This document shows positions 12,691-62,676 of a DNA stretch of 64,000 nucleotides, in pieces. The notes beneath the pieces are model-generated. The model was not told where the DNA came from. It ran no database searches and saw only the letters and a list, made by a program, of their open reading frames with translations. Every line of letters begins with the position of its first letter. Position 1 is the stretch's first letter. This DNA comes from Dehalococcoidia bacterium (lineage in GTDB: Bacteria > Chloroflexota > Dehalococcoidia > UBA2979): assembly GCA_009692705.1 (NCBI GenBank), contig SHYR01000003.1:5170-69169 (forward strand), written 5' to 3'. Made by a program: the position numbers and the translations under genes.

Positions 12691-13069
12691 TCAGCTCGGA
12701 GCCTCGGCGCTATCGTCGTTGTCCACGCCATCACCGTCGCCAGCGCCAGGACCTGCCTCCGCCCGCAGGCGCGCCGCCAAAGATTCCTCGCGCCGCGCGA
12801 CGACTTCCCGGTTTGCTGGGATCAACCGAATCAAGATCAGACCGAGGACGCTGAACATCGCGCCCAGACTTCCCACGCAGCCACGGGCTGCGTCCCTTGT
12901 TTCGCGCAATATCAGCGCTAGTCCAGATTGAGAAGATCAAGAGCGCAGCGGGGACAGCTATGAAAAAGAAAAGGAGGAAAAAAAGTATACGAAATATCAG
13001 GGCGTGACGGAAGTTGGCACGACCGCATTCTAGCAGAGCGGCTAAGCGCGGCCCATCAGCGCCGCCCAT
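12691..13069 (-). pseudogene. Small two-TM membrane protein (KGRSPW-type) split by a +1 frameshift, in a low-GC islet
   Basis: Frame A reads ...ILFFLLFFFIAVPAALLIFSIWTSADIARNKGRSPWLRG. Frame B continues SLGAMFSVLGLILIRLIPANREVV...-stop. The switch is at plus-strand acttccc, about 12868-12874. Confidence 0.35.
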
Positions 13070-53735: not shown

Positions 53736-56051
<2,316 letters not shown>

Positions 56052-57269: not shown

Positions 57270-58547
57270 TCACCCCTCCCACATCAGTTCCACCTCGCCG
57301 ATGCGCACCACTTCACCCGCCACTACCCCCTGACGCTGCAGCGCCCGCGCCACCCCCATGCGGCGCAGCCGCTGCAGCAGCTCGTACCGCGCCTCGCGGT
57401 CGTCGAGGTCCAGCGTGCGCGCCCAGTGCTCCACGGAGCGCCCATCCACCACCACCATCCCGCTGCGCCCGTCACGTGTCACGGTAAAACGGGCGCGGCG
57501 TGGCTCCGGCCGTAGCACCGGCAGTGGCCGCTCCGCCGCCTCCACCTCCCGCTGCTGGCGTAGCAGTTGCAGCGTCCGCCGGGCCAGTTCGCGCGTGCCC
57601 TCGGTGGTCAGCGCCGAGATCGTCACCGCCGGTCCGTGCGGCTCTCCTTGTTCTTGCAGCAACTCCAGTTGCGCGCGCCCGTCTGGAAGATCGACCTTGT
57701 TCAGTGCCAGCAACTGTGGCTTTGCATCGAGCCCGTGCCCGAACGCCGCCAATTCGCCGTCAATCAGTGCGCGACCTGCCAGTGGATCGTCAGCGGTGAG
57801 GTCGATCACATGTACAAGCACACGCGTGCGTTCAATATGGCGCAGAAACTCATGGCCTAGGCCTGCGCCCCGGCTTGCACCCTCAATCAGCCCGGGCATG
57901 TCCGCCGCTACGAAGCTCCCACCATCCACCTCTACCACCTCTACCACACCCAGCTCCGGCTCTAGCGTGGTAAATGGATAGGCTGCCACCTTCGGACGTG
58001 CCGCGCTCCACGCGCGCAGTAGTGTCGACTTACCTGCGTTCGGCAGCCCGATCAGGCCGACGTCCGCTAATAGCTTCAACTCGATGCGCAGCTGCCGCCA
58101 TTCCCCCACCTCACCACTCTGTGCGAACTGTGGCGCCTGCCGCGTGGAGGTTGTGAACCGTTTGTTGCCCCAGCCCCCGCGTCCGCCACGACAGATCACT
58201 ACTGCCATACCATCTTCAGAGAGATCCGCTAGCGGCTCCGCTCCCTCGCCGCGCTCCGTGTCCCACAACACGCTACCCACAGGCACACGCAACTCAAGCT
58301 CTGCACCATTAGCCCCGTGGCGCAGCTTCGAACCGCCGTTTCCGCCATCGACGGCGGCGCGTGCCCGCCCGTCGCTGTACTCGCGCAGCGTGGCTCGGCC
58401 GCGGTCGGCGCGTATCACCACGGCGCCTCCGCGACCGCCGTCGCCACCGTCCGGCCCACCGCGTGGCACAAATTTCTCGCGGCGGAATGACACCGAACCG
58501 TCGCCCCCGCGACCAGCGCACACCTCAAACTTGACCGAGTCAATCAC
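57270..58547 (-). CDS. obg: GTPase Obg/CgtA
   Basis: MIDSVKFEVCAGRGGDGSVSFRREKFVPRGGPDGGDGGRGG, GLPNAGKSTLL, DMPGLIEGA and NKVD. Confidence 0.95.
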   Translation of the reverse strand: MIDSVKFEVCAGRGGDGSVSFRREKFVPRGGPDGGDGGRGGAVVIRADRGRATLREYSDGRARAAVDGGNGGSKLRHGANGAELELRVPVGSVLWDTERGEGAEPLADLSEDGMAVVICRGGRGGWGNKRFTTSTRQAPQFAQSGEVGEWRQLRIELKLLADVGLIGLPNAGKSTLLRAWSAARPKVAAYPFTTLEPELGVVEVVEVDGGSFVAADMPGLIEGASRGAGLGHEFLRHIERTRVLVHVIDLTADDPLAGRALIDGELAAFGHGLDAKPQLLALNKVDLPDGRAQLELLQEQGEPHGPAVTISALTTEGTRELARRTLQLLRQQREVEAAERPLPVLRPEPRRARFTVTRDGRSGMVVVDGRSVEHWARTLDLDDREARYELLQRLRRMGVARALQRQGVVAGEVVRIGEVELMWEG

Positions 58548-58636
58548 AACGGGGCATCGAACGCGGGATATACACAGGGTTCTCAGTTCTGATGGTCAAG
58601 ATCACAACTTAGGAGGATTGCAAAGGACAGAGACCA

Positions 58637-58664
58637 TAGTAGTAGTAGTAGGCGCTGTGGATGC
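58637..58664 (+). promoter_or_regulatory. DnaA-trio-like array: (TAG)x5, GC cluster GCGC, DnaA-box-like TGTGGATGC
   Basis: The plus strand reads TAGTAGTAGTAGTAG-GCGC-TGTGGATGC. Read 3' to 5', the repeats are GAT trinucleotides, abutting a box through a short GC cluster. Confidence 0.5.
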
Positions 58665-58798
58665 GTGGAGGGAGATTCCGGCGCGAACCAGCGCGATAAT
58701 GGGTGATGTGTGTACGTGCGTGGATAAAGTGGTGAGGGATCGACGCTGACATGTCTGCACGGAGCTGTTGTGGGAGCGCTGGCTCGTGGATTGGACTG

Positions 58799-58807
58799 TT
58801 ATCCACA
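58799..58807 (+). promoter_or_regulatory. Consensus DnaA box TTATCCACA
   Basis: Exact 9-mer match. Confidence 0.7.
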
Positions 58808-58949
58808 GCGCGCAGCGGTTGCTGCACACGTGTGAGCCGGTTTATCAACCGCTGGCTCACAGTAAACAGCCAACTGCATATGCGGCAAAACTTATACGGG
58901 CTGTAGATGGTGTTGGCTGGGAAATGGGAGGGTGAGTGCCAGGGAACGG

Positions 58950-60293
58950 TCAGGCAACCTCGCGTGCCTGCTCGACCATCTCGCGCAGGCTGCCGATGTC
59001 GCGCTTAATCTCCAGATCGATGTTCTGGGCGCGCTCCATCTTGCGCCATCCGTGGTGCACGGTGGAGTGATCGCGGTGGCCGAGCAAGTCGCCGATCTCC
59101 ACTAGTGAGCGGTGTGCGAGCTCGCGCATTAGGTACATCGCCAACTGGCGTGGGTACGCTACCCGCTTCGCGCGGCTCTTGGATAGCAGCTCCTCGGGGC
59201 TGAGCGTGAAGTAGCGGCAGATCACGCTCATGATCAGCTGCGGTGACGGCGGCAGCCGCGGCTCCGACGCCGCGAGCGACGCGAGCGCGGACTGCACCAG
59301 CGCCGGCGTCAGCGGATCGCCGGTGAGCCGAGAGTAGGCGAACACCCGCGTCAGCGAGCCCTCCAGCTCACGGATGTTGTTGGTGAAGCGCCCTGCGATT
59401 ACGTGCAGCACGTCGTCCGGCACGCGTGCGTGCTGCTCCGCGGCCTTGGCGCGCAGGATCGCGACGCGGGTCTCGATGTCGGGCGCCTGGATGTCGGCGA
59501 TCAGCCCCCACTCGAAGCGGGTGCGCAGGCGCTCCTCCAGCCGCGGGATCAGCGCCGGGCTCTCGTCGGACGTGATTACGATCTGGTGGCCGGCCTCGTG
59601 GAGGTCGTTGAAGGTGTGGAAGAACTCCAGCTGCGTCTGTTCGCGCCCGGCGATGAACTGGATGTCGTCGATTAGCAGCGCGTCGGCCAGACGGTAGCGG
59701 GCGCGGAACTCTTCCTGGCGGCGCTGCTGGATGGCGGTGATCAACTCGCTGGTGAACTGCTCGGAGGAGACCACCACCACGCGCAGGCCGGCCCGCACGA
59801 GGCGGTGGCCGATGGCGTGCAGCAGGTGGGTCTTGCCGAGACCGACGGGACCGTAGATGAAGAGCGGGTTGTACAGCCGGCCCGGCGCCGCCGCGGAGCC
59901 TTCGGCCGCGGCGTGGGCGAGGCGGTTGCCGGGGCCGACGATGAAGTGCTCGAAGGTGTAGCGGTCCCGCAGCCGTGGCCGTCCGCTGGGCGACGCCGGG
60001 GGGACGGCGACCTCTGCCAGCGCAGGGGTGGCCTCCTCGTGGGCGCGCAGCGGTTCGAAGCGGATATCGAGCGGGTCGCCGGCGAGGTCGGTGAGGGTGC
60101 GGATGATCAGCGGGCGCAGGCGCTTCTGCAGCCACTCGGTTACGAACTCGGAGCGCGTGCCCACGACCAGTGCGCCCTCGTTGAGGCGCATGCCTTCGGT
60201 GCCTTCGAGCCAGGTCTCGTAGTTGGCGCGTGAGACGTGCTGCGCCAGGTGGCGTAGCGCTTCGGTCCAGAGGGCTGCGGGATCGGCGGTCAC
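58950..60293 (-). CDS. dnaA: Chromosomal replication initiator protein DnaA
   Basis: GTG at 60293 (VTADPAALWTEALRHL). YNPLFIYGPVGLGKTHLLHAIG, LLIDDIQF, NIRELEG, and C-terminal HTH RQLAMYLMRELAHRSLVEIGDLLGHRDHSTVHHG. The listed start at 60524 runs through the DnaA boxes and is not credible. Confidence 0.95.
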   Translation of the reverse strand: MTADPAALWTEALRHLAQHVSRANYETWLEGTEGMRLNEGALVVGTRSEFVTEWLQKRLRPLIIRTLTDLAGDPLDIRFEPLRAHEEATPALAEVAVPPASPSGRPRLRDRYTFEHFIVGPGNRLAHAAAEGSAAAPGRLYNPLFIYGPVGLGKTHLLHAIGHRLVRAGLRVVVVSSEQFTSELITAIQQRRQEEFRARYRLADALLIDDIQFIAGREQTQLEFFHTFNDLHEAGHQIVITSDESPALIPRLEERLRTRFEWGLIADIQAPDIETRVAILRAKAAEQHARVPDDVLHVIAGRFTNNIRELEGSLTRVFAYSRLTGDPLTPALVQSALASLAASEPRLPPSPQLIMSVICRYFTLSPEELLSKSRAKRVAYPRQLAMYLMRELAHRSLVEIGDLLGHRDHSTVHHGWRKMERAQNIDLEIKRDIGSLREMVEQAREVA

Positions 60294-60365
60294 GACACGT
60301 TGCCCCCGAGGCCCTCGAGCGCCCGACAGGAGCGAGCGCGCCAACCTCACCGTGCGCGAAGCACG

Positions 60366-60396
60366 ATATCCACAGACGCTCAACGTTTGTGGATAT
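60366..60396. promoter_or_regulatory. Inverted pair of DnaA boxes (ATATCCACA ... TGTGGATAT) upstream of dnaA
   Basis: ATATCCACA at 60366-60374 and TGTGGATAT at 60388-60396, 13 nt apart, about 75-100 nt upstream of the dnaA start. Confidence 0.6.
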
Positions 60397-60626
60397 GCCG
60401 TTTCATGAGAGTGACGCCCCCCGGGGGGCCTGATTAGTCCGTCGTTATCGTCGGTCGCGTCCCGCTGCCGCCGACGGGAAACCGAACGGTCGCGAGAGTA
60501 GCACCGCGCGAAAAGCAGGCGCAAGGGTCTTATGTGGAGTCACCTTGCGAAGTCGCCGATCTTGAGATCGCGCGTGCCGTGGGTGGCCGTCGCGCCGCGG
60601 GCGGCGGGGCGCGCTCGGTGCGACGG

Positions 60627-60664: not shown

Positions 60665-61483
60665 GTGCGTACTGCGAAAGGCGTGGTCGTGAGCGCGTCA
60701 CCGCTGCTGCTCGTGATCGACATCGGCAACACGAGCGTCGCGATGGGCGTGTACGACGGCGACCGCTTGCGGGCGACGTTCCGCATCGCGACCGATCAGG
60801 AGAACCTGCCCGACGAGTACGCGATGCTCGTGCTGTCGCTGCTGCGATCGCATGAGGTCGAGCCGCGCGACGTCGGCGCCGCGGTGGTGTCGTCCACGGT
60901 GCCGCCACTGATCGGCACCTTCCAGCAAGTGTGCCGGCGCTATTTCGATGTGGAGCCGCTGGTGATTGGCATCGGCGTGAAGACCGGCGTGCGCGTGCGC
61001 TACGATAACCCGCGCGAGGTGGGGCCGGACCGCATCCTGCACGCGGTGGCGGCGCTGGCGCGCTACCATCCGCCGCTGGTGATCATCGATGTCGGGACGG
61101 CGCTGGTGTTCGACGCGGTGTCGCGGGAGGGCGATTATCTCGGCGGGGCGATCGCGCCCGGCATCGTGATCGCGTCGCAGGCGCTGTTTGCGCGCGGGGC
61201 GATGCTGCACCGTGTGAGCATCGAGCGGCCGGAGCACGTGATCGGCCGCAACACGGCGCACTCGCTACAGGCGGGCATCTACTACGGCTACGTGGAGATG
61301 GTGAGCGGCATGGTGAGGCGCTTCAAGGCCGAGATCGGCGAGGACGCCACGGTGATCGCCACCGGCGGCTACGCCAGCCTGATCGCCGCCGACGTGGATA
61401 GCATCGATGCGATCGATGAGCACCTCAACCTCGAAGGCCTGCGGCTGGTGTGGCTGGCGAACCGCGCGGCGGTCGGCACGTGA
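60665..61483 (+). CDS. coaX: Type III pantothenate kinase
   Basis: LLVIDIGNTSVAMGVY, NPREVGPDRI, IIDVGTALVFD, GGAIAPG and ATGG. The exact start among several GTGs is uncertain. Confidence 0.9.
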   Translation: MRTAKGVVVSASPLLLVIDIGNTSVAMGVYDGDRLRATFRIATDQENLPDEYAMLVLSLLRSHEVEPRDVGAAVVSSTVPPLIGTFQQVCRRYFDVEPLVIGIGVKTGVRVRYDNPREVGPDRILHAVAALARYHPPLVIIDVGTALVFDAVSREGDYLGGAIAPGIVIASQALFARGAMLHRVSIERPEHVIGRNTAHSLQAGIYYGYVEMVSGMVRRFKAEIGEDATVIATGGYASLIAADVDSIDAIDEHLNLEGLRLVWLANRAAVGT

Positions 61484-62676
61484 GCAGCCCGCTCGCCGGA
61501 CGGCACGTGCTGCTGGGCGTCTCCGGCTCGGTGGCGGCCTACAAGGCCGCCGAGATCGCCAGCCGGCTGGTGCAGGCTGGCGCCGCCGTCGACGTGGCGC
61601 TGACGCCAGCGGCGGCGCGCTTCATCGCGCCGCTCACTTTTCGCTCGCTCACCGGCCGCGAGCCGCACCTCGACCCGTTCGCGCCTCGCGGCGAGGTGGG
61701 GGAGCCGCACGTCGAGCTGGCGCGCGGCATCGACCTAATGCTGATCGCCCCCGCCAGCGCCACCACGATGGCACGGCTTGCGCACGGGCTGGCGGGGGAC
61801 TTCGTCTCGCTGGTGGCGCTCTCGACGCGGGCGCCGCTGCTGCTCGCCCCGGCGATGGACAGCCAGATGTGGGAGCACGCGGCGACGCAGGCGAACCGCG
61901 CCACGCTCGAGGGGCGCGCGGTGCAGCTGGTGGGGCCGGTGGCGGGCCGCCTGGCCTCCGGGCGCACCGGCGCCGGGCGCATGGCCGAGCCGGAGACGAT
62001 CGTGGACGCCGTGAAGGCGCGTCTCGGGCGCGAGCACGGTGACCTCGCCGGCCGCTGCATCGTGGTCACGGCGGGGGGGACGCGCGAGGCGCTGGACCCG
62101 GTGCGGTTCATCGGCAACCACTCCACCGGGAAGATGGGCTACGCGGTGGCGGAGGCGGCGCGCGACCGCGGGGCAGAGGTGGTGCTGATCAGCTCGGCGG
62201 CGCTCCCGGACCCGGTGGGCGTGCGCGTGGTGCGCGTGGAGTCCGCGCTCGAGATGCAGCAGGCGCTGCAGCGCGAGGCCGCCGGCGCGGCGGCGGTGGT
62301 GATGGCGGCGGCGGTGGCGGACTACCGGCCGGCGGAGCCGGCGGCGCGCAAGATCAAACGCGCATCGCGCGCGCGGCTGGAGCTCGGGCTGGTCGAGACC
62401 CCGGACCTGATCGCCTCGCTGCAGGGGCCCTTCATCAAGGTGGCGTTTGCGGCCGAGACCGACGACCTACTGGAAAACGCGCGCCTGAAGCTGGCCGCGA
62501 AGGGCGCGCACCTGGTGGTCGCTAACGACGTCACCGAGCCGGGCTCGGGCTTCGGCACGGACACCAACCGCGTCACGATCCTCGACCGTGACGGTGGTAC
62601 GGACGCGCTGCCGCTGCTCCCCAAGTACGAGGTCGCGGTGCGCCTGCTGGACCGCGTGGCGGCGCTGCTGCGCTAG
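61480..62676 (+). CDS. coaBC: Bifunctional phosphopantothenoylcysteine decarboxylase / synthetase
   Basis: GTG at 61480 overlaps the coaX stop (GTGA). LLGVSGSVAAYKAAEI, PAMDSQMW, TAGGTREALDPVRFIGNHSTGKMG and AAAVADYRP. Confidence 0.9.
   Translation: MSSPLAGRHVLLGVSGSVAAYKAAEIASRLVQAGAAVDVALTPAAARFIAPLTFRSLTGREPHLDPFAPRGEVGEPHVELARGIDLMLIAPASATTMARLAHGLAGDFVSLVALSTRAPLLLAPAMDSQMWEHAATQANRATLEGRAVQLVGPVAGRLASGRTGAGRMAEPETIVDAVKARLGREHGDLAGRCIVVTAGGTREALDPVRFIGNHSTGKMGYAVAEAARDRGAEVVLISSAALPDPVGVRVVRVESALEMQQALQREAAGAAAVVMAAAVADYRPAEPAARKIKRASRARLELGLVETPDLIASLQGPFIKVAFAAETDDLLENARLKLAAKGAHLVVANDVTEPGSGFGTDTNRVTILDRDGGTDALPLLPKYEVAVRLLDRVAALLR

Follow-up and report, generated by a model that had tools for sequence, protein, structure and literature searches.

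Introduction

In Bacillus subtilis and many other bacteria, the origin unwinding module consists of a DnaA box, a short GC cluster, repeated 3'-GAT-5' DnaA-trios and an AT-rich region. DnaA-box clusters can flank dnaA on both sides, and the B. subtilis incA and incB regions are large clusters of this kind located upstream of the gene. Here we describe the 402-bp intergenic spacer between obg and dnaA (58548-58949, bounded by the obg start at 58547 and the dnaA stop at 58950) in a 64,000-nucleotide stretch of DNA, hereafter the window, from an uncultured bacterium that its DnaA relatives place among the Dehalococcoidia (Chloroflexota). The window corresponds to positions 5170-69169 of contig C3 of a metagenome-assembled genome (MAG) that comprises 58 contigs and 1.18 Mb at 72% GC, with an estimated completeness of 77%. 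We consider it very likely that the spacer is the DnaA-dependent chromosomal replication origin (oriC), in an unusual gene context, and that its basal unwinding system (BUS) is of the kind known from B. subtilis.

Searches for the BUS have used the presence of at least three DnaA-trios (3'-NAN-5', preferably 3'-GAT-5') within 16 bp of a DnaA box, in the layout 3'-AATAGGTGT-spacer-GAT-5' with no more than three mismatches in the box; a tandem co-oriented second box accompanies 57% of predicted BUS, with the upstream box usually nearer the consensus (PMC8287927, PMC6669920). In the incC BUS of B. subtilis oriC, DnaA-boxes 6/7 are followed by a GC spacer, the trios and an AT-rich 27-mer (PMC6669920, PMC8287927, PMC10721633; PDB 8BTG). 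The obg-dnaA spacer is likewise situated directly downstream of dnaA. Along the dnaA coding strand it shows a DnaA box with a candidate partner in the same orientation, then a GC-rich spacer of 4 bp, the CTA repeats and less stable DNA. It differs from the B. subtilis system in that the downstream gene is obg and not dnaN, in that its five trios are all perfect where the B. subtilis set is degenerate, and in that neither trio-proximal box fits the consensus well (two and four mismatches). Because the genome as a whole has 72% GC, its "AT-rich" element is also only 42-46% GC, again unlike that of B. subtilis. Compared with incA and incB, the window has only two or three boxes upstream of dnaA.

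Two further systems invite comparison. The oriC1/oriC2 arrangement of Helicobacter pylori (PMC8235120) shares with this locus the placement of boxes on both sides of dnaA and of an unwinding element with trios downstream; in contrast to H. pylori, the upstream sites of the window are few, lie in the dnaA leader and have an unsupported role in initiation. Within the same phylum and class, a DoriC-based survey predicted a BUS beside a DnaA box in the predicted oriC of Dehalococcoides mccartyi and other Chloroflexi (PMC8287927, supplementary table). Those predictions consist of weak A-rich NAN runs in low-GC genomes, whereas the window offers five perfect GAT trios at 72% GC, conservation across the family and the gene order coaX<-dnaA->obg.

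A box, spacer and trio module downstream of dnaA

The spacer contains the DnaA-trio array TAGTAGTAGTAGTAG (58637-58651, plus strand), which on direct reading consists of five perfect 5'-TAG-3' repeats (3'-GAT-5'), equivalent to (CTA)5 on the dnaA coding strand, and which aligns with the CTA/CGA arrays of relatives. The 4-bp GC spacer GCGC (58652-58655), of the same length as the GCCC found in the Bacillaceae loci L063, L073 and L057, separates the first trio from the trio-proximal DnaA box GCATCCACA (TGTGGATGC on the plus strand; 58656-58664, minus strand). This box carries two mismatches, has the right orientation and takes the place of the trio-adjoining box in the Bacillaceae module. A candidate co-oriented tandem partner, CCCTCCACG (58664-58672, minus strand), keeps the TCCAC core with four mismatches and stands in an 8-nt register with the proximal box. 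The same register is seen in L063 (TTATCAAC-ATATCCACA) and L073 (TTATCCAC-ATATTCACA), where dnaA lies on the plus strand; the dnaA-dnaN gap of L063 reads TTATCAAC/ATATCCACA-GCCC-CTACTACTATTACTA, followed by an A/T run, and similar modules are present in L073 and L057. In the window, the upstream box is the poorer of the two, and the TCCACA pairs of relatives are clearer.

Further boxes are located on the dnaA side of this module. A box scan placed a perfect DnaA box, TTATCCACA, at 58799-58807 (plus strand; the whole MAG contains only three such boxes) and a one-mismatch box, TTATCCACG, at 58719-58727 (minus strand). Head-to-head with the perfect box is a weak box, CAATCCACG, with three mismatches and a TCCAC core (58785-58793, minus strand), and additional weak boxes with two to three mismatches occur at 58568 and 58842. 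Read on the dnaA coding strand, the elements are TTATCCACG, the head-to-head pair TGTGGATAA / CAATCCACG, and CCCTCCACG/GCATCCACA-GCGC-CTACTACTACTACTA, leading into DNA of 42-46% GC and then obg. All motifs named in an earlier note, written from the DNA letters of the window, were recovered by direct reading and the box scan. A MAG-wide scan of box density, which it had proposed for the full chromosome, yielded 30 boxes with at most one mismatch in 1.18 Mb, and the surroundings of dnaA, with four, were the sole site with more than one per 2 kb and so the only cluster of near-consensus boxes. Furthermore, (TAG)5 is unique in the MAG, where only three (TAG)3 runs occur elsewhere, and a strict pattern of box, spacer and CTA trios has a single match, in this spacer.

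The module adjoins the least stable DNA of the window. At 60, 100, 200 and 400 bp, the stability minimum always falls at the spacer, directly distal to the trios: the least stable 60-mer is 58591-58650 (42% GC), the least stable 100-mer is 58567-58666 (the two span 42-46% GC against 72%), and the least stable and lowest-GC 400-bp stretch is 58525-58924 (54% against ~72% GC). The earlier claim that 58550-58949 is the lowest-GC stretch of the window therefore holds at the scale of 400 bp; in instability, the spacer ranks second at 30 bp, behind 12959-12988. From the stability scan we delimit a candidate DNA unwinding element of relatively AT-rich DNA at 58567-58636, distal to the trios, which also carries the obg promoter and leader; together with the trios as far as 58650, it makes up the least stable 60-100 bp of the window, at 42-46% GC in absolute terms. 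No Rfam family matches the spacer, which gives no support to an RNA element there; the lone match, a sub-threshold one to AsdA (E 0.18), lies inside dnaA and was taken as chance. A scan for consensus promoters and terminators called nothing.

Because the spacer is built like the B. subtilis unwinding module, we read it as an ordinary origin, and DnaA binding, unwinding and firing would be expected to follow the B. subtilis model. In such a mechanism, DnaA-ATP would bind the double-stranded boxes at 58799, 58785 and 58719 and the tandem pair 58664-58672 / 58656-58664. From the tandem pair, a DnaA oligomer would extend across GCGC onto the five 3'-GAT-5' trios of the plus strand (58637-58651), capture the trio bases and open the adjoining low-stability DNA (~58567-58636), where the helicase would be loaded. 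Forks would then leave in both directions, the leftward one co-directional with a long block of minus-strand genes.

The DnaA encoded in the window is full length, and its best match is the B. subtilis DnaA in the cryo-EM structure of the BUS complex (PDB 8BTG; 4.8e-115, residues 8-439). Four of the five trio-contact residues are kept, namely the equivalents of Ile190, Ile193, Arg202 and Glu228, an indirect argument for strand separation that would depend on DnaA-ATP, boxes and trios. The fifth, Asn187, which contacts the trio adenine, is replaced by Ser in the motif SSEQFTSELITAI, while all 25 relatives examined have Asn at this position. The residue at this position does not covary with trio type (CTA or CGA), as only the window has Ser and every relative has Asn.

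Conservation of the module among relatives

In about 20 of the 24 relatives from the family, tandem TCCACA-type boxes and a C(T/G)A-repeat array occur together some 100 nt ahead of obg. The combined box and repeat array is the best-conserved block of the spacer alignment, the remaining spacer sequence having diverged, and the position and orientation of the array and its spacing to the tandem boxes are kept in ~20 relatives whose DnaA identity ranges from 47 to 77%. The surrounding gene order is also kept: of the 24 family loci, 23 have coaX<-dnaA->obg, as do L001-L003 and L072, and gyrB follows wherever the flank reaches far enough to show it. That dnaN is missing beside dnaA, as the earlier note pointed out, is real and a family trait; dnaN lies on a separate contig in this MAG (C1:15699-16889) and on other contigs in G001 and G002.

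The Bacillaceae-like architecture and this conservation, together with the skew and strand switches described below, support the proposal of an origin with a module of DnaA box, GC cluster, DnaA-trios and AT-rich DNA downstream of dnaA. A likely replication origin is thereby fixed for an uncultured Dehalococcoidia lineage of 72% GC. The Bacillus-type module of box, GC spacer and GAT trios has kept its position and orientation downstream of dnaA even though obg has replaced dnaN, and this persistence adds comparative support for the view that the BUS is ancient.

The repeats themselves vary within the family. The first trio is almost always CTA, and later trios are mostly CGA (3'-GCT-5') in many relatives (among them L136, L141 and L144), including members of the same genus (L123-L125). 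CGA trios depart from the central-adenine rule, so these loci constitute a natural test set for trio specificity.

GC skew and gene orientation at the spacer

For the GC-skew check suggested in the earlier note, contig-level skew and the genomes of relatives were used in place of whole-chromosome skew. The cumulative G-C minimum of the window falls at 58550, within the obg-dnaA spacer, and on the contig the skew is negative over the 59 kb to the left of the spacer and positive over the 5.5 kb to its right. Within this genome, the skew has its largest amplitude around dnaA-obg. Plus-strand gyrB has the negative skew of the minus-strand genes around it, and minus-strand dnaA the positive skew of the plus-strand genes next to it. 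Both genes thus carry the sign of their region, so coding strand does not explain the skew; in G009, too, this artefact is ruled out. The minimum coincides with a switch in gene strand next to dnaA. A rough gene call gives 43 minus-strand and 4 plus-strand open reading frames to the left of 58.6 kb, in agreement with the earlier description of nearly all genes there as minus-strand, and genes are also oriented away from the spacer in G007, G001 and G009.

Among the relatives, the cumulative minimum again lies in the dnaA-obg spacer in G007 (same genus) and, with weak skew, in G023, each over an 80-kb stretch, and in G002 over a whole 168-kb contig. In the closed genome G012 the sign changes in the expected direction but weakly, the skew not exceeding 0.03 in magnitude, and the skew at dnaA-obg is ambiguous in G003, G008, G015 and G020. 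The skew check thus favours the spacer in the window's contig, G007, G002 and G023, and places the minimum elsewhere in G009 and G001.

Several of our observations weigh against an origin at the spacer. With only ~6 kb of contig to its right and a MAG in 58 contigs, the skew of the window is a contig-level signal and not a global minimum. There is no flip at dnaA-obg in the closed genome G009 or on the 286-kb contig of G001, and no clear one in G003 and G008; in G009 and G001, strong upward skew jumps are instead found at parS sites 100-230 kb away from dnaA-obg. On the dnaA coding strand, nearly every relative has a C-rich dnaA and spacer and a G-rich obg, irrespective of the skew of the region, so that the base-pair precision of the minimum at 58550 partly reflects intrinsic gene composition. 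In addition, the spacer holds just one perfect and one one-mismatch box, and the tandem partner of the proximal box has four mismatches.

The upstream side of dnaA

The earlier note had described the origin as bipartite, and an inverted pair of one-mismatch boxes, ATATCCACA N13 TGTGGATAT (60366-60374 and 60388-60396), was indeed located by the box scan in the dnaA leader, 73-103 nt before the start codon. Further upstream, the most conserved block of the dnaA-coaX spacer alignment (60495-60541, minus strand) consists of TCCACATAAG, followed by TTGCGC, 18 nt and TACTCT. This block was not called by the consensus scan, yet judged by its sequence it looks like the dnaA promoter, and the inverted pair lies downstream of it. 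In all, five boxes or cores lie downstream of dnaA, and upstream of it are two one-mismatch boxes and one box-like core, the latter adjoining the promoter-like block.

Autoregulatory boxes are common in the leader and promoter of dnaA. We consider it most likely that the inverted pair is an autoregulatory operator through which DnaA would repress its own gene, an explanation that fits the upstream pair at least as well as does a second origin half; possibly it is an auxiliary origin element, a role that is unsupported. A truly bipartite origin, comparable to those of B. subtilis and H. pylori, in which initiation requires, along with the downstream module, a second DnaA-binding half made up of the box-like site at 60529-60539 and the pair at 60366-60396, appears to us unlikely. 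It would account for the boxes on both sides of dnaA, for the recurrence of the pair with its 13-nt spacing in L001 and G009 and for the invariance of the TCCACATAAG block in four relatives, and both arms of the pair are changed alike in L002. However, the upstream sites number only two or three and fall within the leader and promoter of dnaA, L003 and L072 lack the pair, and the trios, the low-stability DNA and the skew minimum all occur on the other side, downstream of dnaA. The presence of the inverted pair is thus borne out, and the label "bipartite" is not established, given the few upstream sites and their partial conservation.

In L002 (5896-5924, upstream of dnaA in G001), TCCACA has become TCAACA in both arms, which are in addition extended (CGTCAACAGACGAT / ATTGTTTGTTGACG).

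parS-linked skew in relatives

The single 2,615,142-bp contig of G009 displays a GC-skew saw-tooth with about seven upward jumps and teeth of 70-600 kb. Each tooth begins with a sharp jump to +0.15 to +0.22, followed by a near-linear fall to -0.15 to -0.2. The pattern is the same for genes of either strand, AT skew is flat, and dnaA-obg lies in the middle of a tooth. Of the eight copies of the canonical parS palindrome TGTTTCACGTGAAACA, seven lie at such jumps; the eight are located at 90,297, 162,651, 498,128, 858,394, 1,098,557, 1,346,333, 1,785,343 and 2,199,715; the jumps near 90 and 163 kb are close together, and the one at 1,346 kb is at the ancestral rpmH-rnpA-yidD-parS locus. G001 has 23 parS sites, spread over at least 11 contigs; seven of them make up an array at the ancestral locus (C3:6,668-7,200), where the skew of the 286-kb contig switches. 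Only one or two parS are present in each of G012, G011, G023 and G021. The window's own genome carries rpmH-rnpA-yidD on contig C4 (214-1030) with a single perfect parS behind it (1015-1030), which falls at the start of a PQQ/BamB-like gene. This contig ends 213 nt upstream of rpmH, and the left flank of the locus, which bears a strong skew switch in G009 and G001, is unseen because of its position at the contig end.

Such a saw-tooth weakens GC skew as a marker of origins across the family, and some relatives may initiate replication elsewhere than at dnaA-obg. If the saw-tooth reflects replication, it would mean that there are bacteria whose chromosomes have several origins. Its profile is the one that a set of fixed origins with dispersed termination should give, an arrangement not known in bacteria, and we found no relevant literature on saw-tooth or multi-origin skew in Chloroflexi. 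A skew centred on parS and uncoupled from both dnaA and gene orientation is the part of these results most likely to surprise a specialist and the lead most worth following.

Two accounts of the saw-tooth bear on the spacer. According to the first, which we judge improbable, the dnaA-obg module is only one of several start sites in this Dehalococcoidia family and the saw-tooth records several fixed origins with dispersed termination. The window's genome, in which one parS was seen, would then still rely mainly on DnaA and the BUS, and relatives would have added, or switched to, parS-linked, box-poor origins. The second account, distinctly improbable in our view, places the principal start elsewhere, for example at rpmH-rnpA-yidD-parS at the start of the window genome's own C4, and makes of the dnaA-obg module either an origin that is vestigial or secondary, or else a site for DnaA titration or regulation. 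It draws on the fact that the strongest origin-like skew switches of G009 and G001 are at parS, including the ancestral rnpA-yidD-parS locus, with none at dnaA-obg, and that the window's genome has this same locus at the very end of C4. Against it, C4 shows neither strong skew to the right of parS nor DnaA boxes at its start, and close inspection of two G009 jumps, those at 1,097 kb and 1,346 kb, revealed no DnaA boxes, box clusters or BUS-like modules. The strongest skew of the window's genome is at dnaA-obg, and G007, G002, G023 and G012 switch there as well. Moreover, ~100 kb of G009 genes, 93-100% co-oriented, point away from dnaA-obg and would run head-on to a fork coming from the 1,098-kb parS.

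Returning to the spacer itself, the notion that the TAG array is a chance microsatellite beside chance box look-alikes in an AT-richer promoter region is scarcely credible: TCCAC cores alone are not significantly enriched (at least five cores in 1.4% of 402-bp windows, for which reason their count was not used as evidence) and shuffles of the whole window give at least four one-mismatch boxes in 3 of 100 trials, but the array has no second copy in the MAG and the notion is contradicted by the conservation data, the placement of the array having been retained while the rest of the spacer diverged.

Gene context and minor observations

The genes around the spacer were placed with Pfam and confirm that the usual dnaA-dnaN-recF-gyrB order is broken, with obg and coaX flanking dnaA and gyrB 2.9 kb away on the other strand, as had been noted. 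From left to right these are gyrB (53781-56051, plus strand); obg (57270-58547, minus strand; GTP1_OBG, MMR_HSR1, DUF1967), which occupies the place of dnaN downstream of the origin in a synteny kept in relatives; dnaA (58950-60293, minus strand; DnaA_N, Bac_DnaA, Bac_DnaA_C), encoding 447 aa from a GTG at 60293; coaX (60665-61483, plus strand); coaBC (61450-62676, plus strand); and, from 62709 on the minus strand, an M17 aminopeptidase gene.

At 1.18 Mb and an estimated 77% completeness, the MAG (G000) is small compared with its relatives of the same genus or family, which mostly measure 1.6-3.5 Mb, so that either its completeness has been overestimated or the genome is much reduced. A second stretch of low stability in the window, at 12897-12996, ranks directly after the spacer and holds a 30-mer of 23% GC, gaaaaagaaaaggaggaaaaaaagtatacgaaatatc, in this 72%-GC genome.

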